From assembly GCA_963832025.1 (NCBI GenBank), contig CAWHSF010000003.1:366121-430120 (forward strand): a stretch of 64,000 nt of DNA, written 5' to 3'. The DNA comes from Candidatus Nomurabacteria bacterium. GTDB taxonomy: Bacteria > Patescibacteriota > Minisyncoccia > Phycocordibacterales > UBA9973. This document shows positions 5,018-60,676 of this stretch, in pieces. The notes beneath the pieces were generated by a model. It was not told where the DNA came from, ran no database searches, and saw only the letters and a program-made list of their open reading frames with translations. Position 1 is the stretch's first letter; every line of letters starts with the position of its first letter. Both the position numbers and the translations under genes were made by a program.

Positions 5018-8000
5018 ATGAATTCTCGCTTATATCTTGGCGATGATAACAAGAAATACATCTCAACTAAAGAGGCTAGTTCTTTGACGGGTTACTCCAG
5101 AGATTATATAGGCCAACTTGTCCGAAGTAATAAGATAGATTCCCAAAAAATTGGCCGTACATGGTATGTCTCGGAGGAAGCAATTTTGAACTATAAAATA
5201 TTCTCAAATCAATTAGGGTTGGTTCCAGATGTGGCGCCAGAAAAGATCCAAAGTGAAAATTTTATTCAAAATCCGGTCGTGATTCCAGTTCCGAGTGTAA
5301 AACTTCCTGCTCCTTCCGTGTCGGGCGAAAAATTAAAAAAGAACCTAAAAAGAAAAAAAATACTTTTATCAACTTTTAGTTTTCTCCTGATAGCCGGGAT
5401 AGTCTCTGCGAGTGGTATCAATTTTAAAGAAGTCTTTAAAAATACTTTCTCCACGCCCAAAAGTTTTTTATCTGCTAGTTCAATCCAATCATTCCCCAAC
5501 AACAAAACACCGACCATAAACATTTCTGACTTGGCGACTTCATATGAAAATTATCTTACTCCACAAGTAGCAACCTCAAGTAAACCTTCTGCTCCTTCGG
5601 TTGAAAAAATTATTGAAATTGAAAAAAGTCCGGTTACGCAAACTGCTGTTCTTTCCATTTTGCAGAACTTGCTCAGCGAACCGGCAATCCAAAATGAACT
5701 TCGTGGTCCGACTGGACCAACCGGCCCAGCCGGAACTTCGGGAAGCTATGCCACCTACACCAGTTATGTGGCTCCGAATCCGGCAATCAATTATGTCGGC
5801 GCCACTTTTTCTTCCGCTTCCAATTTATCTTCCAACCTCTTGAACACCGGCACAGCCAACATAAATAATTTAGCTGTCTCCGCCGGCGCGATAATCGGAA
5901 GTTTGAATGTGACAGGAGATTCTTCTTTTGGCGGACAAGTTGTCGCCTCAACTGTTGTTGATTCCGGTTTAGTAAACCAAACTTGCATCGGCACCGATGC
6001 ATCAGGCGCATTTGAAGCCGGCACTTGTGGCAGTGGTAGTGGCAGTCAGTGGACAACTAGCGGGTCAGATATTTATTACAACACCGGCAACGTCGGCATC
6101 GGCACAACTTCACCGGCAGCAACGCTCGATGTCACCGGCACAGGTAATTTTTCCGGCGCACTGACCGCGGGAACAATTAACGGCATCACTTTCTCCGGTT
6201 CTTCCACGCCGACGCTCAGTGTCTCCGGAACGGCTTCCGTCTCTGGCGCCAACACCGGAGACAATGCAACCAACACACAATATGCAAATGACTATCGAGC
6301 AGCAAATTTTGTCGCCGGCACAGATTACCAAGCCCCCGTCACTCTCACTACCACCGGCAGTAGCGGAGCTTCCACTTTTTCTAGTAACACTTTAAATATT
6401 CCAAACTACACTCTCGCAGGTCTCGGAGGAATTTCTAATATCTCCGGTCAAGATTTAAGCACAGCCAACAATGCAACATCAAAATTTATAACTTTAGGTT
6501 CGCTTTCTGCCGGAACCGGAATTTCTTACGATAATACGACTGGGATAATTACAAATTCTGCTCCAGACCAAACCGTTGCTTTTTCCGGTGGAACAAATGT
6601 AACGATTGGTGGAACTTATCCAAACTTTACAATTACCGACAACTCCATAACTACGGGAGGAGCCAGAAGCGCAATTTCACTGACAACCACCGGAAGTTCC
6701 GGAGCCTCTACTTATAATTCGGGAACGGGTGTTTTAAATATTCCTCAATATCAAGCAGGATTGAGTTTAATTAAGGGAACTTATGTTGATGGGGATGTTT
6801 GTACTTATGCTTCTACCGGCACTCTTTTAAATTGTAATACCGCGGCATATCAAATAGCTTCTTCCGCTCTTTCTTCCATCGCCGGTCTTGCTTGGTCTTC
6901 CGGAACACCTTTCGTTAAAATGACAGCCTCCGGAACCTTTGCGCTAGATACAAATACATATGCGACCGGAAGTGGAACAGCCAGTGGCACCAACACCGGC
7001 GACCAAACACTTACCATCGGGGGCACAACTTCTCCAACTATCGCCTTATCGGGAAGCAATACAGCAACATTCTCCGCAGGAACAGGAATTACTTTAGGGC
7101 AATCGGCTGGAACGATAACAATTACAAATTCTGCACCTTTCACTGGGGGACTTCTTGCTACCGGTGCAACTACCGGTGCAACAAGCCAAGCTCAAGCGTT
7201 TACCAATGGCATAATCTCTCCGACCATTCTGGGCGGTTCAGGAACAACGCAAACACTTAACTTCCAAACTACTTCAGGGGTGGGTGCAACGGGAGCCGAT
7301 ATGCATTTCAATGTCGGCAACAACGGAGCGACGAATGCCATGACGATTTTGAATAGCGGCAACGTCGGCATCGGGACGACGAGTCCGGCACAGAAGTTAA
7401 CTGTCACTGGTGGAAATATACAAATGACTGATGCTGGGGCGAAATTGTATTTAACAGATGGCTCACATTATGTTTCTTACGACGGCACAAATACGCAAAT
7501 ATTTTCTAGTGTTGGTGGCGTCAATTTAGCAGTTAATACGGCATCTCCTATTTCATTTATAACTAATTCAGCGTACCAAATGAGGTTAAGTGCTACTGGA
7601 GGATTGTCACTTGGTTCAACCTATTATTCTACGGACGCTGGGGCAGGGAATATGATAATACAAGGCAAGGTCGGCATCGGGACGACGACGCCTGCTTATG
7701 GTTTAGATGTAGCAAAAGGGACTGGGGCAACGGCACAATTTTTTGACCAAACCGCGACCACGGGTAGCACGCTTGTTACTATTCAAGCAGGTGCGGCACA
7801 AAACGCTGGAGCTTATACAAATGTTTTGAATTTTGCTGGCAATAATGGAACGACCAGAGGGTATATAGCTGTAGACGGATTGAACGGAGTATCAAAACTA
7901 AATATTACTGATGTTGTCGCTTCAAATGGTAATTGGGAGTTAAAAGATTCGGGCTCGTTAAATATGTATGCTGGCAATTCAATCTACTTGCAAAATGCTC

Positions 8001-11000
8001 ACTCCAACTCTAATATACAATTGTATAACACTGGGGCAACGGGGGTATCGAGTCTAGCAATAATGAACGGCAACGTCGGCATCGGGACCACGGGGCCGAG
8101 TGATTTGTTGCAACTTGGCACTGGAAATTTAAGTTGGTCATCTGATGGTGGCGGTGATATTGGGGCGAGTGGAGGAAATAGACCAGGGAATATTTATGCT
8201 AAGATTCAAGTCAGGGCTGGTGCTGGTTATCTAAATGGTAATACGGTTGGAGGGAGTAGCAATTTTGCTTTGTCTGGTGGTGGTAGTGCTACTTTGACAA
8301 TTGGCGGAACAAGCAACACCATTGTTTTCAAAACTACCGCCTCTAATTCAGAGGTAATGAGGATAGAACCAATAAACGGCAACGTCGGCATCGGGACGAC
8401 GACACCGACGGCTTACTTAAACATCAAAGCAGGAACAGCCACAGCTAACACCGAACCTCTACAACTTACCGCTGGAGTATTAAACACCTCCGCCGTCTCC
8501 GGAGCATTAGAAACAGATGCAAGTAACAATTTATATTACACACCGGGTACAGGAACGAGAGGAATTATTCCTTTGGGCACAGCGGCAAATACTTTGCTCT
8601 TTACTACTACTGGTGCGACGAATGTGACTTTACCAACAAGTGGAACGCTGGCAACACTTGGTTCTCCAACTTTCACTGGCACTGTCACCACACCGGCTTT
8701 AACCATTTCCGGTATCACCGGCAGTACCCAATGCTTACAAGTCAACAGCAGTGGTGTGGTCAGTGGCACATCTGCAGCTTGTGGCGGAGGTGGTGGTTCA
8801 ACTGCTTGGAGCAGTATCACCAACCCAAGCGGAAATCTTTCTTTGGCAATGGCTGGTGACACCAGTACTTTCACTTACGGAGCGACAACCGGTTCAGCAA
8901 ACTTGTTCAACTTAACCGACACCTCTTCCAATACCGGCACTGGAGTTTTGTTGAATGTCTCAACTGCCAGTGGTTCTACTTTAAATCCTTTCTCCGTGAC
9001 TACCGCCGGTGCAACAAATCCGAGCTTGTATGTCGGTTCTAATGGTAACGTTTCAATTGGAACCTCAATTACAAATACTGCAGTTCTGCAAGTACAAGCA
9101 CCGGTTCCGGAGAGTAGTCTTTTTGCTTTTGCGAACCATGATTTTTCTCTGGGTAGCGTAGGAACTGCCATGACGATTGATACCGGAGCTACCTCCGGAG
9201 ATACCTATGTGGATATGCAAGCTTACAACGCTGGTGGAGTTAATGGCGGTCCTTTAGTTTTTAATGCTGCTGGTGGTAATGTCGGGATTGATACAAACGA
9301 CCCAACTACCGCTCTCACCGTTAATGGGAGTATGTCCAATCTCCTTAATCCCAGTTCAGCTTTTTTAAATGTTGTAGGTTCGACATCAATTACTTCTGCT
9401 TCCGTGGTCTACGTCTCCGGTAACTATGCCTATGTGGCAGATTATACCGGTAATGAACTTGATATTGTTGACATTACCAATCCGAATGCTCCCTATGTGG
9501 CTGGCACATTAAGCGGAATTAATCATATCTCTTCCATCTACGTTTCCGGTCGTTATGCCTATGTGACGGACAAAAGTATTGGTGACATGACTATCATTGA
9601 TGTTTCCAATCCGATTTCACCGACTGTGGTCGGTACATTAACCGGACTTAATACTCCTACCTCCATCTACGTTTCTGGTCGTTATGCCTATGTAGCGGAT
9701 AGCGGTAGTGGTGATATGTATGTGATTGATGTTTCCACTCCGAGATTACCGATTGTGGTTGCCACCTTAACCGGGCTGAGTAGTCCTTCCTCCATCTATG
9801 TTTCCGGTCATTATGCCTATGTAGCAGATAGTGGTAGTGGTCACATGTCTATCATCGATATTTCCGATCCGGTTTCACCGAATGTGATAGGTACAGCAAC
9901 CGGACTTGGTAGTCCCTCCTCTGTCTATGTCTCCGGTCGTTATGCCTATGTGACGGATACGGGTAGTGGTAACTTGTATTCCATTGACCTTTCCAACCAA
10001 GCTTCTCCGAGTGTGGTTGGTACGCTACCAGGATTTATTACTCCAACTGATGTCTATGTTTCTGGTAATTTTGCATATGTAACAGACAGTGACGGTGAAC
10101 TCGACGTCGTTGATATTTCCGACCCGACTACTCCGATTTATGATACATATGCAGGACTTACTGCTCCCGACTCGGTCTATGTCTCCGGTCAGTATGCCTA
10201 TGTCGCGGATAGTGGTGGCGGCGATATGGCTGTCATTGACCTAACCGGAACACAAACAACTTCCTTGACCGCCGGGAGTGCGAACATCGGCAACTTGCAG
10301 ATTGCTAATGATTCTTTGGTTGGTGGTCAACTGCAAGTAAATGGTGCCCTGACAGCCAACGGTGGAAACTTTAACAGTGGAGTTGCAGTAAATGGAAATA
10401 TTTCCAATACCATTTCATCTTCTTCTCCTCCGACTGTCGTTGCTACTGCCACCGGGCTGACTAATATCTTAACTGACTATGTCTCCGGTAACTATGCGTA
10501 TGTAGGAACTGGTACCGGTGGTACTGGTCATATGTATATCGTTGATATTTCCAATCCGACTGCTCCGAGTGTTGTCGGTACATTATCAGGGGTTGGTAAG
10601 ATTAATTCTATCTATGTTTCCGGTCAGTATGCCTATGTGTTAGATGATAGTAATGGCTACATGGATGTCGTTGATATTTCCAATCCGCATGCCCCAAGTG
10701 TTGTCGGTACAGTGGTAGGGTTTACTGGTCCTGTATCTATCTATGTTTCCGGTCATTATGCCTATGTGACAGATGCCAATTCTCTGACTTTGTCTGTCAT
10801 CGATGTTTCCAACCCGACTGCTCCGAATCTCATCGGAAGTCCATTGTCGCTGACTGCTCCTCTCTTCATCTATGTTTCCGGTCATTATGCCTATGTGACG
10901 GAAAGTGGTGGGAGCATGGATATCATTGATGTTTCCAATCCGTATTCTCTGAGTATTGTCGGTACAGCCACAGGACTTGGTTCTCTTGATGGCAATGTCT

Positions 11001-12514
11001 ATGTCTCCGGTCGTTATGCGTATGTAACAAATACTGCTAGTAGTGGTGATATGTATGTCGTTGATGTTTCCAATCCAGTTTCTCCAAGTACTGTCGGTAC
11101 ATTAGGACTTTCTTGGCCTCTTGGTATCAATGTCTCCGGTCATTATGCCTATGTGACGAGTTATGCTGGTGGTGGCATGTATGTCCTTGATGTTTCCAAT
11201 CCGACTGCTCCAAGTGCTGTTGCTCTTACACTCGGACTGACTACTCCTTCTTTTATCAGGGTTTCCGGTCGTTATGCCTATGTGGTGGAATCTACTGCTA
11301 GTTCCATGGCTGTCATTGACCTCACTGGTACCCAAACAACTTCTCTCACCTCCGGTAGTGCTAACATCGGTAACTTGCAAATTGCTAATGATGCTTTGAT
11401 TGGTGGTCAACTGCAGGTGAATGGTGGTTTGACGGCAAGTGGTGGAAACTTTTCGGGGGATGTGGCGACTGAGGGATCCTTAAACATTGCTGGATATGTA
11501 GGTATCGGGACGACGATGCCGGACAATCCTCTTACTGTTAACGGCGCAGCGGACAATACTACCGGTGTATGGTCTGTATTTTCTGATGAACGCTTGAAAA
11601 ATATTGACGGCAACTTTAATGATGGCTTGTCCACCCTGATGCAGTTTAATCCGGTTACGTTTACCTATAATGGACAAAATGGAATTTCGGACACTACTAC
11701 ACAGCAAATTGGTATCGTTGCTCAAGACGTGCAACAATTTGCTCCATATATGATAAATACAGTGGAAGGGACATTGAACGGACAGCCTACGAGTCTACTT
11801 CAATTCAACCCGCAAGCATTGCCATATATCACCATCAATGCAGTTAAGGAATTGAATCTAGATTTAGATGCGATTTCGGGATTGACGGTGCCGACTCCGA
11901 CTCCGGAATCTACCAGTTTTGCAACTGCGTTCTTTAAAAATATTGAAACTAAACTTATTGCTTGGTTTGCTGATGCTGGGAATGGAATAGGAGATTTGTT
12001 CGCTGGAACAATTCACGCTACAAATGAACTATGTATCAACACCACTTGCGTGACTCAAGCACAACTGCAAGCACTTTTGGCAAATTTAAATTCAAACGGA
12101 AACGCAGGAAACAATACGTCTGCCAATGCAGGCGAAAATAATTCAAATGTTCAAAATCCGCCTTCCAGTATTCCCGTAATCACTTTGATTGGTGATGCCA
12201 CCATTAATTTAAATGTCGGAGATACTTACACTGAACAAGGAGCAACTGCCACCGAAAATGATAATGCAGTCGCGGTTGTTATCAGCGGGACGGTAGACAC
12301 AACCACTGCCGGCACTTACACTGTTGATTATGATGCGACGGATTCTGCCGGGAACAAAGCGGTTGAAGTTACGAGAACAGTGATTGTTGCAAATGCGCCA
12401 GTTTCAACTTTTTCGTCGGACTCAGGATCTACGGCTACGCCTGCGACAACACCAGATTCAACAACAGCTAATTCCACAACCACTCCAGATTCTAGCACTT
12501 CAACTTCAAACTAA
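5018..12514 (+). CDS. Giant (2498 aa) membrane-anchored surface protein. Domain order: N-terminal excisionase-type HTH, one TM helix, short collagen-like GPT run, tail-fibre-like GNVGIGTTSP repeats, two 7-repeat LVIVD blocks, S74-type intramolecular chaperone domain, Ig-like domain, Thr/Ser-rich tail.
   Basis: Single uninterrupted ORF. HTH: YISTKEASSLTGYSRDYIGQLVRSNKIDSQKIGRTWYV. TM: LLSTFSFLLIAGIVSASGI. Collagen-like: GPTGPTGPAGTSG. Seven G(N/K)VGIG(T/D)T motifs. Fourteen YVSGxYAYVxD...(V/I)(V/I)D(V/I)SNP repeats. S74 domain: SDERLKNI...GIVAQDVQQFAPYMI. Ig-like: ITLIGDATINLNVGDTYTEQGATA...AGTYTVDYDATDSAGN. Confidence 0.85.
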   Translation: MNSRLYLGDDNKKYISTKEASSLTGYSRDYIGQLVRSNKIDSQKIGRTWYVSEEAILNYKIFSNQLGLVPDVAPEKIQSENFIQNPVVIPVPSVKLPAPSVSGEKLKKNLKRKKILLSTFSFLLIAGIVSASGINFKEVFKNTFSTPKSFLSASSIQSFPNNKTPTINISDLATSYENYLTPQVATSSKPSAPSVEKIIEIEKSPVTQTAVLSILQNLLSEPAIQNELRGPTGPTGPAGTSGSYATYTSYVAPNPAINYVGATFSSASNLSSNLLNTGTANINNLAVSAGAIIGSLNVTGDSSFGGQVVASTVVDSGLVNQTCIGTDASGAFEAGTCGSGSGSQWTTSGSDIYYNTGNVGIGTTSPAATLDVTGTGNFSGALTAGTINGITFSGSSTPTLSVSGTASVSGANTGDNATNTQYANDYRAANFVAGTDYQAPVTLTTTGSSGASTFSSNTLNIPNYTLAGLGGISNISGQDLSTANNATSKFITLGSLSAGTGISYDNTTGIITNSAPDQTVAFSGGTNVTIGGTYPNFTITDNSITTGGARSAISLTTTGSSGASTYNSGTGVLNIPQYQAGLSLIKGTYVDGDVCTYASTGTLLNCNTAAYQIASSALSSIAGLAWSSGTPFVKMTASGTFALDTNTYATGSGTASGTNTGDQTLTIGGTTSPTIALSGSNTATFSAGTGITLGQSAGTITITNSAPFTGGLLATGATTGATSQAQAFTNGIISPTILGGSGTTQTLNFQTTSGVGATGADMHFNVGNNGATNAMTILNSGNVGIGTTSPAQKLTVTGGNIQMTDAGAKLYLTDGSHYVSYDGTNTQIFSSVGGVNLAVNTASPISFITNSAYQMRLSATGGLSLGSTYYSTDAGAGNMIIQGKVGIGTTTPAYGLDVAKGTGATAQFFDQTATTGSTLVTIQAGAAQNAGAYTNVLNFAGNNGTTRGYIAVDGLNGVSKLNITDVVASNGNWELKDSGSLNMYAGNSIYLQNAHSNSNIQLYNTGATGVSSLAIMNGNVGIGTTGPSDLLQLGTGNLSWSSDGGGDIGASGGNRPGNIYAKIQVRAGAGYLNGNTVGGSSNFALSGGGSATLTIGGTSNTIVFKTTASNSEVMRIEPINGNVGIGTTTPTAYLNIKAGTATANTEPLQLTAGVLNTSAVSGALETDASNNLYYTPGTGTRGIIPLGTAANTLLFTTTGATNVTLPTSGTLATLGSPTFTGTVTTPALTISGITGSTQCLQVNSSGVVSGTSAACGGGGGSTAWSSITNPSGNLSLAMAGDTSTFTYGATTGSANLFNLTDTSSNTGTGVLLNVSTASGSTLNPFSVTTAGATNPSLYVGSNGNVSIGTSITNTAVLQVQAPVPESSLFAFANHDFSLGSVGTAMTIDTGATSGDTYVDMQAYNAGGVNGGPLVFNAAGGNVGIDTNDPTTALTVNGSMSNLLNPSSAFLNVVGSTSITSASVVYVSGNYAYVADYTGNELDIVDITNPNAPYVAGTLSGINHISSIYVSGRYAYVTDKSIGDMTIIDVSNPISPTVVGTLTGLNTPTSIYVSGRYAYVADSGSGDMYVIDVSTPRLPIVVATLTGLSSPSSIYVSGHYAYVADSGSGHMSIIDISDPVSPNVIGTATGLGSPSSVYVSGRYAYVTDTGSGNLYSIDLSNQASPSVVGTLPGFITPTDVYVSGNFAYVTDSDGELDVVDISDPTTPIYDTYAGLTAPDSVYVSGQYAYVADSGGGDMAVIDLTGTQTTSLTAGSANIGNLQIANDSLVGGQLQVNGALTANGGNFNSGVAVNGNISNTISSSSPPTVVATATGLTNILTDYVSGNYAYVGTGTGGTGHMYIVDISNPTAPSVVGTLSGVGKINSIYVSGQYAYVLDDSNGYMDVVDISNPHAPSVVGTVVGFTGPVSIYVSGHYAYVTDANSLTLSVIDVSNPTAPNLIGSPLSLTAPLFIYVSGHYAYVTESGGSMDIIDVSNPYSLSIVGTATGLGSLDGNVYVSGRYAYVTNTASSGDMYVVDVSNPVSPSTVGTLGLSWPLGINVSGHYAYVTSYAGGGMYVLDVSNPTAPSAVALTLGLTTPSFIRVSGRYAYVVESTASSMAVIDLTGTQTTSLTSGSANIGNLQIANDALIGGQLQVNGGLTASGGNFSGDVATEGSLNIAGYVGIGTTMPDNPLTVNGAADNTTGVWSVFSDERLKNIDGNFNDGLSTLMQFNPVTFTYNGQNGISDTTTQQIGIVAQDVQQFAPYMINTVEGTLNGQPTSLLQFNPQALPYITINAVKELNLDLDAISGLTVPTPTPESTSFATAFFKNIETKLIAWFADAGNGIGDLFAGTIHATNELCINTTCVTQAQLQALLANLNSNGNAGNNTSANAGENNSNVQNPPSSIPVITLIGDATINLNVGDTYTEQGATATENDNAVAVVISGTVDTTTAGTYTVDYDATDSAGNKAVEVTRTVIVANAPVSTFSSDSGSTATPATTPDSTTANSTTTPDSSTSTSN

Positions 12515-12681: not shown

Positions 12682-14778
12682 ATGGCAAAAGAGAAAGAAG
12701 ACAAAAAAGGTGGCGACAAAAGCCACCATTATGATGCCTCCGACATCTCGGTTTTGGAGGGTCTGGAGCCGGTTCGACGCCGTCCGGGCATGTATATCGG
12801 TACGACGGGGCCGGAAGGCTTACATCATTTGATTTGGGAAATTTTTGACAACTCTCGTGATGAAGCGATGGGTGGTTTTTGTGACGATATTGAAATTGTG
12901 CTTTTGCCAAACAACCGCATACGCGTCGCCGACAACGGCCGAGGCATGCCGGTAGACATTCATAAAAAAACCAAAGTCTCCGCGTTGGAGACAGTCATGA
13001 CGACACTGCACGCCGGAGGAAAATTCGGCGGTGACCATAGTGGCTACAAAGTTTCCGGAGGTTTGCACGGTGTCGGCGCTTCGGTAGTGAATGCGCTTTC
13101 TATTTTTTGCGAAGCGAGAGTTTGTCGAGACGGTGGTGAATACCGACAAGAATATTCGGAGGGCAAAAGAAAATCCGCGGTTAAAAAAATAGCGTCTTCA
13201 AAATTGCATGGCACGATTATCACTTTTGAACCGGATAAAAAAATTTTTGGTGATATTAAATTTGATTGGAATACCATTGTCGCTCATATTCGCCAACAAG
13301 CTTATTTGGTGAAAAAACTGAAAATTTTAATTATTGATGCGCGTGAATGGGACAATAATAAAGGTATGAATGAATCCGACGTTTTTTATTTTCGGGACTT
13401 GAGGCTGGAACTTCCGTCGGTCTCTTTTTATTTTGAAGGCGGATTGGTTTCTCTCGTAAAATATTTGAACAAATTTCAAAAGCCCGTCCAAAGCAATATT
13501 TTTTATGTTGAAAAAGAATTGGATGGTGTCGGTGTGGAGATAGCTCTGCAATATGTAGATGATATTTCCGAACGCATCATTCCTTTTGCAAACAATATCA
13601 ATACTCCCGAAGGTGGCACCCATGTGACTGGTTTTAAAACAGCACTCACTAGAACTTTGAATACTTACTGCAAGAAAAATGAAATGATGAAAGAGTCCGA
13701 AGGCGGATTTACCGGCGAAGACGTCTTGGAAGGTTTGACGGCGGTCATTTCTGTAAAATTGCGCGAGATACAATTTGAAGGTCAGACTAAAGCAAAACTC
13801 GGTAGTATGGAGGCGCAAGGCGCGGTGGCGACAGTTTTCGGCGAAGCCTTCGCAAATTTCTTGGAAGAAAATCCGGACGAAGCAAAAATAATCATCAACA
13901 AATCCATTCTTGCCTTAAAAGCCCGCAAAGCCGCCAAAGCCGCCAAAGATTCCATCCTCCGCAAGGGTGCTTTGGAAGGGATGACTCTTCCGGGGAAACT
14001 CGCAGACTGCCAGAGCAAGAATGCATCCGAATCCGAACTATTCATCGTGGAGGGAGATTCCGCAGGTGGTAGTGCCAAACAAGGACGCGACCGTCGCACT
14101 CAAGCTATTTTGCCACTTGCGTGGAAAAATTTTGAATGTTGAACGCGCGCGCATTGACAAAATGCTCGCTTCCAAAGAAGTGAAATCGCTTGTCATTGCC
14201 ATGGGTACATCCATAGGAGATACCTTTGATATAGACAAAATGCGTTACCATAAAATAATCATCGCGACCGATGCCGACGTGGACGGTTCCCACATCAGCA
14301 CATTGCTTTTGACTCTTTTCTATCGATATTTTCGCCAAGTGATTGACGCGGGATATATTTACATCGCGCAGCCTCCACTATATAAAATAAAAAAAGGCAA
14401 AGAAATTTTTTATGCTTACACTGATGAAGAAAAAGTAAAAATTATCGGCAAAAATGCGGATGTGAGTGACATTGAGGAGGTGGAAGATGAAGAACCCCTA
14501 CCCGACCTCCCCCTTGTTAAGGGGGAGGAGAAGAGGAGGAGGGTCTAGAGAAAAAATCCACTAAAATTCACATTCAGCGATATAAAGGTCTCGGAGAAAT
14601 GAATCCAGAAGAACTTTGGGAGACGACCATGGATCCTGCACATCGCGTGCTCAAGCAAGTGATGATTAATGACGCCGAAGAAGCCAACAAAATTTTTGAT
14701 ATTCTCATGGGCTCCGAAGTTCCTCCGCGTAAATCTTTCATTCAATCCAATGCGAAACTAGCGGAGATTGATATCTAA
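12682..14778 (+). CDS. gyrB: DNA gyrase subunit B. The reading requires two frame changes.
   Basis: Motifs [70 protein letters not shown] and [19 protein letters not shown]. The frame changes near 14117 (extra base between CTT and CGT) and returns in the G5 run at 14521-14525, inside a palindromic insert. Confidence 0.9.
14506..14528. repeat. Family B palindrome inside gyrB
   Basis: cctccccctt-gtt-aagggggagg. The 10-bp stems are identical to the smc copy. Confidence 0.85.
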
Positions 14779-57398: not shown

Positions 57399-57406
57399 CA
57401 TTTTTG

Positions 57407-57768
57407 TTGCAGGTATCTATAAGCCGAATTTCGTAGTCTGACCGAAGTCGGACGATAGTAATTTATCTAGGCCTCAAATTACTCTGAGGCTCAAGCGATT
57501 CTCCCCCACACCTTTCGGAGCGATGCGCAGTTGCGCGTTGTATTTCACAACCTCGTTCTGAAAGGTGTGGGGGCACGATCTTGCACACACGTAAGTATTT
57601 TGCCGTTTCACTCCCGCCGATGGCGGGATTCGTCACTGTTCGCAACTCTATCCTTACGGATGATGGGTATTACCCACTACGCTTGCCTAGACGCAAGGTC
57701 AGGGCTGTGTGTTCGGACTTTCCTCCCGCCTTATAAAAGACGAGTAACTATCCAATACCTGCACCCTT
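57407..57768 (-). ncRNA. rnpB: RNase P RNA (bacterial type)
   Basis: The reverse complement contains CR-I ggcGGGAGGAAAGTCCGAACacacag (57710-57735) and CR-V-like cagactACGAAATTCGGCTTATag (57417-57440). The ends pair as P1 (gcaggtat / atacctgc). ORF-track ORFs here are spurious. Confidence 0.85.
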
Positions 57769-59502: not shown

Positions 59503-59529
59503 ATTTTTTCGATATAAATGATTTCAGTG

Positions 59530-59600
59530 TGGACCTAGCGAGAATCGAACTCGCGCTTCGTCAATGCGAATGACGCGTAATACCACTTTACTATAGGCCC
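59530..59600 (-). tRNA. tRNA-Ala (anticodon CGC)
   Basis: The reverse complement gggcctatagtaaagtggtattacgcgtcattCGCattgacg... has the G3:U70 pair, A73, a perfect 5-bp anticodon stem and a TTCGATT T-loop. Confidence 0.75.
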
Positions 59601-59615
59601 GTGTATGCGGGTATG

Positions 59616-59687
59616 TGCGTCTTGTTGGAATCGGACCAACGGCCTTTCCGATGTGAACGGAACGCTCTACCCCTGAGCTAAAGACGC
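59616..59687 (-). tRNA. tRNA-Val (anticodon CAC)
   Basis: The reverse complement gcgtctttagctcaggggtagagcgttccgttCACatcggaa... folds as a cloverleaf with acceptor gcgtctt/aagacgc. Confidence 0.85.
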
Positions 59688-59702
59688 AAGCAGAATTCCC
59701 AG

Positions 59703-59773
59703 TGGACCTACGGAGAGTCGGACTCCGACCTCGTCCATGCCATGGACGCGTTCTACCGCTGAACTATAGGCCC
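59703..59773 (-). tRNA. tRNA-Ala (anticodon GGC)
   Basis: The reverse complement gggcctatagttcagcggtagaacgcgtccatGGCatggacg... has the G3:U70 pair and A73. Confidence 0.85.
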
Positions 59774-59858
59774 GTCTGTAGAATAATAGCCGAAATATAT
59801 AAAAATACAACGGCAATTTACATTTTAATCAAAATAATATAAAATGCCTTTGTTGTCT

Positions 59859-59931
59859 GGGCCTTTAGCTCATCTGGTAGAGCGCCTCATTTGCAATGAG
59901 GAGGTAAGGAGTTCGAGTCTCCTAAGGTCCA
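59859..59931 (+). tRNA. tRNA-Ala (anticodon UGC)
   Basis: gggcctttagctcatctggtagagcgcctcattTGCaatgagg...aggagttcgagtctcctaaggtcca, with the G3:U70 pair and A73. Confidence 0.9.
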
Positions 59932-60103
59932 CAATGATCCGCGAGAACAGCTGGGAGCTGCTTGAGCGAATCATCATTGTGTGACATGAGAGACGAGAAA
60001 GGCGGAGGCCGACGGGCCGAGCCGGGGTAGCGAAATTTTTCAGTAGAAAAATATTTGTGACCGAGTCTCCTAATGTCCACAGTTGTTCTTTGGAAAATTA
60101 AAT

Positions 60104-60157
60104 TCGGGAGTAGCTCAGCGGTACCTGCCTGCCGGCAGGCAGGGGGCGGTCGCCTGT
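60104..60157 (+). pseudogene. Orphan 5-prime half of tRNA-Asn (acceptor to anticodon positions 34-35) carrying a 20-bp palindrome in the D arm
   Basis: tcgggagtagctcagcggta[cctgcctgccggcaggcagg]gggcggtcgcctgt matches the intact tRNA-Asn 5-prime half at 60415-60448, apart from the insert and one substitution. Confidence 0.75.
60124..60143. repeat. Family C 20-bp perfect palindrome inside the tRNA-Asn 5-prime fragment
   Basis: CCTGCCTGCCGGCAGGCAGG, inserted relative to the intact tRNA-Asn D arm. Confidence 0.9.
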
Positions 60158-60171
60158 GATATGATTTAGAA

Positions 60172-60435
60172 ATGGAGGAAAATTTCGTTTACGCCATAAA
60201 AAGCATAAAGGATGGCAGAATTTATGTTGGAATGAGTCGTAACCCGTAAAAGAGATTGTTGGAACACAACAGCGGAAAAGTTTTTTCTACGAAAGGTTTT
60301 CGTCCTTGGATTCTGATATTTTTTGAAAATACTGGCGCAAGTAGAATTTATGCCAGAATTAGGGAAAAATATTGGAAATCAGGGTGTGGTAAGGAAAAAT
60401 TGAAAAAAGAATATTCGGGAGTAGCTCAGCGGTAG
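60172..60435 (+). pseudogene. Small GIY-YIG (COG2827/YhbQ-like) nuclease gene with an in-frame TAA at 60247-60249. Its 3-prime end runs into tRNA-Asn.
   Basis: Translation: MEENFVYAIKSIKDGRIYVGMSRNP*KRLLEHNSGK...GFRPWILIFFE...ARIREKYWKSG. This is the GIY...YVG...R...EHN pattern of the GIY-YIG fold. Confidence 0.7.
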
Positions 60436-60486
60436 AGCGGTCGCCTGTTAAGCGATTGGTCGTAGGTTCGATCCCTACCTCCCGAG
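60415..60486 (+). tRNA. tRNA-Asn (anticodon GUU)
   Basis: tcgggagtagctcagcggtagagcggtcgcctGTTaagcgattggtcgtaggttcgatccctacctcccgag folds as a canonical cloverleaf. Confidence 0.9.
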
Positions 60487-60676
60487 CATTACGTGGACTT
60501 TCAGCGTAGAGTTCTTCTATTTGTCCTCGTATTTTTACCTATTTTGAGAGGTTCTAACCGTTTATTTTCAATCACTACATCTTTTAAGGGAATTAGCGTT
60601 TTTTCCATATCAATCACTACGATTTTGTCTTTTAACGACGAGGTGCGAACCTAATTGGATGAATACCTCTTTTTTC

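Follow-up and report, generated by a model that had tools for sequence, protein, structure and literature searches.

What does an S74 intramolecular-chaperone domain do when it does not end its protein? The question is raised by a giant surface-fibre protein of 2498 amino acids (aa), encoded in a 64,000-nucleotide (nt) stretch of Candidatus Nomurabacteria DNA (contig CAWHSF010000003.1, positions 366,121 to 430,120; this whole stretch is called the window below). An earlier note, made from the letters of the window, had recognized a self-cleaving S74-type domain inside the protein and regarded its internal position as exceptional. Our analysis bears out both the domain and its place away from the C-terminus: 310 residues run from the catalytic Ser to the stop codon, about 140 of them beyond the chaperone unit. 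The protein belongs to a family so far undescribed, in which this layout is normal and the window copy nothing out of the ordinary. We hold it moderately probable that the region is a functional S74 chaperone/autoprotease unit near the distal end of a membrane-anchored fibre, from which it would shed the whole 310-aa C-terminal fragment.

An S74 core with an intact catalytic dyad

The gene, and the features around the predicted cleavage site, are as follows.

5018..12514, + strand: giant surface-fibre protein gene, a single uninterrupted open reading frame (ORF) of 2498 aa, stop codon at 12512-12514
11498..11533, + strand: last of seven V-G-I-G-T-T-x-P-x-x-x-L capping-loop motifs, aa 2161-2172 (motif scan)
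11579..11584, + strand: predicted scissile bond Phe2188/Ser2189, with Ser2189 as the putative nucleophile (PF13884 position 1)
11582..11878, + strand: S74 core, aa 2189-2287, a beta "donut" plus the first long helix (AlphaFold2, Foldseek and profile matches)
11597..11599, + strand: Lys2194, the dyad's putative general base (invariant across alignments A1, A3 and A5)

The Pfam profile Peptidase_S74 (PF13884) matched aa 2189-2243 with 37.9 bits (E 2.2e-9; model positions 1-54 of 58), against a gathering cut-off of 22 bits; the match is far beyond chance. Six-frame translation of the window gave no S74 core other than that of ORF 5018-12514. The peptide WSVFSDERLKN begins at aa 2185 (nt 11570) and the FAPYMI segment ends at nt 11755; the Ser2189 codon starts at nt 11582, and the motif S-D-E-R-L-K spans S2189 to K2194. 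Two minus-strand ORFs in the same region, 11407-11634 and 11480-11737, were set aside as shadows of the fibre gene, since nothing backs them.

In an alignment of 37 diverse S74 regions (A1), Ser2189, Asp2190, Lys2194, Gly2232, Ala2235, Gln2236 and Pro2243 are invariant; Ser2189 and Lys2194 are invariant also in alignments A3 and A5, so that the Ser/Lys pair proposed earlier is found in a proper alignment. The two residues align with S587 and K592 of MyRF, and Lys2194 also corresponds to K916 of endoNF. MyRF is cut between P586 and S587, and S587 and K592, which are equivalent to endoNF S911 and K916, are indispensable for the cut (PMC8326128). R2192 and the aromatic residues F2213 and Y2215 are the counterparts of MyRF residues whose mutation impairs cleavage. 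Ser2189 further aligns with the residue at which the released GA-1 chaperone fragment starts; this fragment was crystallised (3GUD) and begins SDERHK. Because the GA-1 fragment starts at this motif and MyRF is cut before S587, the predicted bond in the fibre protein is Phe2188/Ser2189.

A search of Protein Data Bank (PDB) sequences with the A1 profile matched 8jov (a phage tail fibre), 7dc3 (the MyRF ICA domain), 6f45 (the S16 long tail fibre) and 3gud (the GA-1 neck appendage); a single-sequence phmmer search of the PDB with the C-terminal 354 aa returned no S74 structure, just spurious WD40-type matches and an immunoglobulin (Ig) domain. The AlphaFold2 (AF2) model of the core has predicted local distance difference test (pLDDT) values of mostly 94-98 across the beta core and ~80 in its last helix. 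Foldseek placed this model closest to MyRF 7dc3 (E 5.8e-5; TM-score 0.64-0.69, target-normalised), with GA-1 3gud and endoNF 3gw6 also matched. The region has a profile score above the cut-off, the S-D-x-x-x-K dyad and the donut-plus-helix fold of peptidase S74; it lacks the extreme C-terminal position typical of the phage members, which is no strict requirement, because the MYRF domain is internal too. Domain identity, dyad and fold are established by these results.

The chaperone unit extends beyond the Pfam model

Downstream of the core we distinguish the following features.

11879..11914, + strand: Pro/Thr linker, aa 2288-2299 (sequence; low pLDDT)
11915..12100, + strand: family-specific post-core module, aa 2300-2361 (alignment A4, AF2, local profile)
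12101..12163, + strand: Asn/Gly/Ser-rich linker, aa 2362-2382 (sequence; pLDDT <50)
12164..12397, + strand: Ig-like domain, aa 2383-2460 (PF16403 match at aa 2388-2457)
12398..12511, + strand: Ser/Thr/Pro-rich C-terminal tail, aa 2461-2498, 38 residues (sequence; pLDDT <50)

The elements listed in the earlier note, namely helices, an Asn/Gly linker, an Ig-like domain and a Ser/Thr/Pro tail, are all present; the helices fall at aa 2265-2286, 2298-2318 and 2347-2361 in the AF2 models. The note had counted the coiled segment among the additions to the domain, a division that does not hold. The 58 positions of PF13884 reach only about one third of the way into the chaperone unit. The coiled segment therefore belongs to that unit, which comprises the S74 core and the post-core module (about aa 2189-2361). 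The truly extra part is ~140 residues, not 310, and consists of the Asn/Gly linker, the PF16403 Ig-like domain and the Ser/Thr/Pro tail. The fragment from Ser2189 to the last residue had been put at ~34 kDa; its length of 310 aa stands, and its calculated mass is 32.2 kDa, not 34. Classical S74 relatives that we sampled have 102-154 residues between the Ser and the C-terminus and end in a coiled coil.

The module is built from a helix, a W-[LF]-A-D-A-G-N-G-I loop, a beta-hairpin with Cys2339 and Cys2344, and a final helix. The invariant positions of alignment A4 are F2301, F2305, W2316, N2322, C2339 and C2344; the Cys pair is invariant in other alignments too. With a deeper alignment of 70 sequences, AF2 modelled the module at pLDDT 80-93, and a local hidden Markov model of it scored 99.7 bits on aa 2300-2356. 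Searches of Pfam (at E up to 1), of NCBIfam and of PDB sequences all left it unmatched. A word-indexed protein search with the A4 module profile gave 9 short fragments, from a search whose matches appeared limited in length.

The domain behind the module is a bacterial surface Ig-like domain, with a profile score well above threshold (PF16403, DUF5011-type, 67 bits versus a cut-off of 27) and a beta-sandwich fold (AF2 pLDDT ~90; Foldseek matches to BT2262 and Big_3 domains). Inspection of the tail sequence, aa 2461-2498, revealed no LPXTG motif and no hydrophobic anchor.

An internal S74 unit is normal in a large family

We defined a Patescibacteria family by an S74 core followed, within ~15-40 residues, by F-x-x-x-F-F ... 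W-[LF]-A-D-A-x-N-G-I ... C-x(2-10)-C-x-x-x-x-Q-L, a pattern that the giant protein matches. A profile of core plus module was then run against 1.84 billion cluster representatives (clusters at 50% identity) and retrieved 220,055 proteins at E <= 1e-3, 97,626 at E <= 1e-10 and 998 at E <= 1e-30. By our estimate a single core does not suffice for the last level, which takes the module as well, or several cores; with 998 proteins reaching it, the layout accounts for ~1% of S74 clusters, still a large family of ~1000 clusters.

Module and tails were tallied in 139 new top representatives, and the dyad in 151 detected cores of the family. The module is present in 136 of the representatives, followed by 3-207 further residues (median 97; at least 30 in 131 proteins, <30 in 5). 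Downstream domains are thus common among relatives, and within the family the notion of an exceptional layout falls away. The tails are of several kinds: Pro/Thr/Ser/Glu-rich low-complexity sequence, which is commonest, short Cys-bracketed repeats, Big_3 domains and PF16403 Ig domains. The order S74 to Ig at the C-terminus recurs in a protein of 2144 aa (P0159) and in ORFs of two Nomurabacteria genomes (L003:2236-9816, 2526 aa; L004, 1010 aa), with the Ig domain 40-53% identical and retained together with the rest of the cassette. The family-wide architecture is established by these tallies.

Could the internal position nevertheless be an artefact, in which an assembly or sequencing error fused two genes and the S74 domain truly ends one of them? 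An error in the window is conceivable, because the adjoining gyrB gene has an apparent 1-base frameshift (see below). There is, however, no stop codon or change of frame between the S74 core and the tail, and the continuous architecture recurs in the independent assemblies of L003, L004 and P0159 and in >130 representatives. We rejected the fusion on this conservation across independent assemblies, and regard it as extremely improbable.

The same tallies bear on the repurposed, non-cleaving domain that the earlier note had suggested, and which would amount to a permanent trimerisation module keeping an Ig tip on the fibre. That the domain is internal, with a structured domain behind it, is what such a module would look like, and the catalytic residues can be lost: the second core of P0125 lacks the Lys. 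It is the one true Lys loss among the four exceptions to S-x4-K; two of the others are partial alignments and one is a truncated sequence. The remaining 147 of 151 cores keep the motif, tandem cores included, as would be expected if selection maintained catalysis. The window protein itself has Ser2189, Lys2194 and the surrounding conserved residues intact, and in MyRF the domains downstream of the ICA do not stop cleavage. These points disfavour a permanently uncut unit, which we judge distinctly improbable.

The alignment with P0159 shows how these proteins are put together. The two proteins align over just the N-terminal 470 aa, at 51% identity, and again over the cassette that starts at aa 2185, at 53%; the middle is unrelated. 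The fibres are therefore mosaics. Homology resumes exactly at aa 2185, so the S74-module-Ig cassette behaves as one exchangeable unit, and its junction coincides with the predicted cleavage site. An exact-sequence look-up found no record of the giant protein. When genome contigs were scanned with the giant protein, most matches were to the Ig domain only, in Flavobacteriaceae, and the S74 cassette was covered only by L003-L005; genome relatives covering the full C-terminal cassette are Candidatus Nomurabacteria metagenome-assembled genomes only. No relative was found in 2.9 million IMG/VR viral contigs by a scan for the module motif, or in a second viral-contig scan with the cassette, so these scans lend no support to the idea that the cassette came recently from phages.

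Several further observations concern the relatives. Two metagenome contigs carry small complete genes that encode the same cassette of S74, module and Big_3/Ig domain (L001 8001-9041, 346 aa; L002 7678-9243, 521 aa); their neighbours are mobile-element-like (resolvase, PemK toxin, GIY-YIG, primase zinc ribbon, methyltransferase, pectate-lyase-like). Exchange of the cassette between such elements and fibre genes on chromosomes is possible. A Bacteroidota-like protein, P0103, has S74 at aa 379-435 followed by a weak Por_Secre_tail match (21 bits, under the cut-off) of type IX sorting, which would be another route to an internal S74. Many relatives (for example P0001, P0049, P0055, P0072, P0074 and P0086) have a Cys 1-2 residues before the catalytic Ser (C-S-S-D, C-A-S-D, C-T-S-D), often paired with a second Cys ~10 residues further upstream; the window protein (S-V-F-S-D) is without it.

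Predicted cleavage and the fate of the C-terminal fragment

By analogy with MyRF and Bd3182 of Bdellovibrio, we infer homotrimer formation and trimer-dependent autoproteolysis for the S74 unit; the membrane topology is predicted from sequence, and the fate given to the fragment is likewise a proposal. The protein would be exported and its N-terminus anchored in the membrane; three units, each of core (aa 2189-2287) and module (aa 2300-2361), would associate, and the unit trimer would template folding of the upstream beta-helical stalk. Ser2189 and Lys2194, active in the trimer only, would then cut Phe2188/Ser2189. The 310-aa C-terminal fragment (32 kDa per chain, Ig domain and Ser/Thr tail included) would part from the mature fibre, leaving residue 2188 as the new distal end, and the Ig or low-complexity tail would be a variable accessory of the chaperone fragment. 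The fibre is probably trimeric, and its host a Nomurabacteria-like Patescibacteria cell.

Two precedents speak for a cut of this kind. The internal S74/ICA domain of MyRF self-cleaves at X/S despite large downstream domains, which makes cleavage plausible here by analogy, and S74 autoproteolysis has been demonstrated in a cellular fibre, Bdellovibrio Bd3182, where it is abolished by S782A (PMC10769870). The position of the last capping loop, which ends 17 residues upstream of Ser2189, is a further hint: a capping loop just upstream of the Ser, as in the MAT fibres of Bdellovibrio and in MyRF, would fit a cleaved unit. The loop consensus common to both is V-G-G/N-pi-x-x-P-x-x-x-L (PMC10769870), and a motif scan of the giant protein found copies starting at aa 359, 783, 885, 1020, 1123, 1422 and 2161.

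Other points weigh against this reading. It is hard to see why a folded Ig-like domain would be kept on a piece destined only for disposal. MyRF trimerises through a coiled coil that is longer than the helix behind the core in the giant protein, and the latter helix is followed by a module to which no function is assigned. No counterpart of the stalk arginine R897 of endoNF, which is needed for endoNF cleavage, was identified in the giant protein, and the membrane topology is itself a prediction.

A first alternative is that the cleaved C-terminal trimer stays non-covalently on the fibre tip, where the three Ig domains and the Ser/Thr tails would form the working adhesin of the distal end, or else a temporary cap that is dropped when the fibre meets a partner cell. 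The Ig domain is well folded and belongs to a kind often met in surface adhesins of bacteria, and the family tails vary as receptor-binding tips do, among Ig, Big_3, Cys-repeat and low-complexity forms; for phage fibres, transient caps made of chaperone are reported (PMC10579305). Yet most tails in the family are pure low-complexity Pro/Thr/Ser/Glu sequence without a folded domain, a poor fit to a conserved tip adhesin, and characterised S74 systems process the chaperone to a separate species, its removal being said to expose the binding surface. We regard a retained tip or cap as rather unlikely.

A second possibility is that the released trimer of chaperone unit plus Ig domain is a functional product in its own right, for example a secreted lectin-like or adhesive factor, which is the "two-product gene" of the earlier note. 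It agrees with the favoured reading on cleavage and differs only in the role given to the released fragment. MyRF offers a precedent, in that S74/ICA cleavage separates two functional halves, and relatives with 2-4 intact cores look like polyproteins cut into several products; the conservation of the Ig domain along with the cassette in P0159, L003 and L004 points the same way. The kind of tail, however, is not conserved in the family and is often low-complexity only, and the searches turned up no gene that encodes such a fragment by itself, the short matches being contig-edge fragments. A second functional product seems improbable to us, and we retain the reading in which the chaperone fragment is shed with its tail as an accessory.

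Relatives with several S74 cores

More than one intact S74 core occurs in several relatives: tandem pairs in P0122-P0125, P0131, P0201 and P0251, and three cores in P0215. The largest of them, P0121 (5473 aa), has four cores ~1100 residues apart, with SDxRLK at 1490, 2656, 3743 and 4931. Its cores 1-3 are each followed by an LCLGG[DE]CRSSWPTIAS...PVDLSGYALLANIPDVSSF junction, and a different sequence follows core 4. Such proteins look like self-cleaving surface polyproteins, if every core cuts.

A wider possibility, which we consider less likely than not, is that S74 in Patescibacteria is a general internal processing site and not only a disposable C-terminal cap. Here it would release a trimeric chaperone-plus-Ig product from the fibre tip, and in relatives with 2-4 cores it would cut a giant precursor into separate fibres; the module with its helices and Cys-hairpin would adapt the domain to this use.

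N-terminus and stalk of the fibre protein

Three features upstream of the cassette complete the protein.

5057..5194, + strand: excisionase-type helix-turn-helix (HTH)-like domain, aa 14-59, presumed cytoplasmic (HTH_17 and TIGR01764, both just under cut-off)
5354..5413, + strand: lone hydrophobic segment ILLSTFSFLLIAGIVSASGI, about aa 113-132 (hydropathy maximum of the protein)
9407..11317, + strand: LVIVD beta-propeller repeats in two blocks, about aa 1464-2100 (PF08309, motif search)

The HTH-like domain scored 24.7 bits with Pfam HTH_17 (cut-off 27) and 27.3 with TIGR01764 (cut-off 28.8), and is also kept in L003 and P0159. KKNLKRKK immediately precedes the hydrophobic segment, which by the positive-inside rule is predicted to be a membrane anchor with the N-terminus inside and the C-terminus outside. 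The combination of a cytoplasmic HTH of DNA-binding type and a membrane span at the start of a giant extracellular fibre is puzzling.

PF08309 gave 304 bits over 13 stretches, and a motif search found 12 LVIVD repeats, in blocks of 7 and 5. Both blocks close with a shared LTGTQTTSLT...GNLQIAND...GGQLQVNG segment (aa 1742 and 2102). The repeated blocks are an internal duplication of a propeller "head" within the presumed trimeric fibre.

Genomic context

The neighbouring genes are pheS, pheT, gyrB, thrS, nusB, smc, rpoB and rpoC, which identify the window as part of a cellular chromosome and not of a phage, and establish the cellular context of the fibre gene. Ordinary chromosomal content is found further along and is consistent with a cellular origin: an RNase P RNA (bacterial class A, 114.5 bits) at 57404-57763 on the minus strand and a cluster of five tRNAs (three Ala, Val and Asn) at 59529-60487. 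Rfam detected no rRNA in the window.

gyrB (12682-14548, + strand) is split into overlapping ORFs, 12682-14142 and 14021-14548, with a junction near 14100-14115. The frame shifts within the conserved ILPL/RGKILNVE motif, as fits one extra base (CTT G CGT GGA). The split may stem from a sequencing error, mark a pseudogene or reflect a genuine frameshift.

Comparison with known S74 systems

The fibre protein shares with the phage S74 chaperones (MEROPS S74: endoNF of K1F, the GA-1 neck appendage, T5 pb1 and the S16 long tail fibre) the S-D-x-R-x-K dyad, the G-x-x-A-Q...P motif, the fold, and a position directly after a fibre or beta-helix stalk. It departs from them behind the core. Phage S74 domains end the protein with a coiled coil, whereas here a Pro/Thr break and the module of helices and Cys-hairpin follow, and then ~140 residues with an Ig domain; the gene is also chromosomal and cellular, unlike those of phage S74 proteins.

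Closer in setting is the S74 subgroup of Bdellovibrio MAT fibres (Bd3182, PMC10769870). Both are cellular, long and mosaic, with repeated capping loops and S74 after the last of them, and with seven copies of the loop the giant protein shows a feature of the MAT fibre family. MAT proteins of the S74 subgroup terminate in S74, whereas the giant protein continues past the S74 unit; it also starts with an HTH-like domain and a predicted membrane anchor, and it carries LVIVD propellers.

MYRF/MrfA resembles the fibre protein in that its S74/ICA domain is likewise internal and is combined with a DNA-binding-type domain and a membrane span, and MyRF 7dc3 is the closest solved structure to the core model. 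In MYRF, however, one side of the membrane holds both the DNA-binding domain and the ICA, and cleavage frees a transcription factor. This is not the arrangement of the giant protein: the HTH (aa 14-59) and S74 (from aa 2189) are separated by the predicted span at about aa 113-132, so cleavage cannot free the HTH, and we rejected a MYRF-like release of the N-terminal domain. The part released would here be an extracellular C-terminal fragment.

The nearest relatives are uncharacterised Patescibacteria proteins annotated as "tail fiber" or "DUF5011 domain-containing" (P0037 of Candidatus Nomurabacteria, L003, L004 and P0159), which have the same C-terminal cassette. L003 and P0159 share the HTH-like N-terminus; the membrane segment was seen only in L003. 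Their middle parts contain YadA-head-like or other repeats where the window protein has LVIVD propellers, as expected of mosaic evolution. With its post-core module and C-terminal tail, the architecture differs from the described phage and Bdellovibrio cases, and in the literature we found nothing linking S74 to Patescibacteria and no account of the post-core module or of the fibre family.

Implications

The presumed lifestyle of Patescibacteria is one of attachment to other cells, and to our knowledge almost nothing has been learned of their surface machinery. In the ~1000 clusters of giant mosaic fibres identified here, a chaperone of the self-cleaving phage type occurs internally and in altered form, accompanied by a conserved module absent from databases. 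For annotation, the short Pfam model understates the chaperone unit, and an S74 domain away from the C-terminus is by itself no sign of an anomaly. If the predicted cleavage is true, it would define residue 2188 as the distal end of the fibre and tell whether propellers or Ig domains face the partner cell. The use of an internal S74 as a processing switch, in the style of MYRF, would then extend to bacteria, and possibly to self-cleaving polyproteins.

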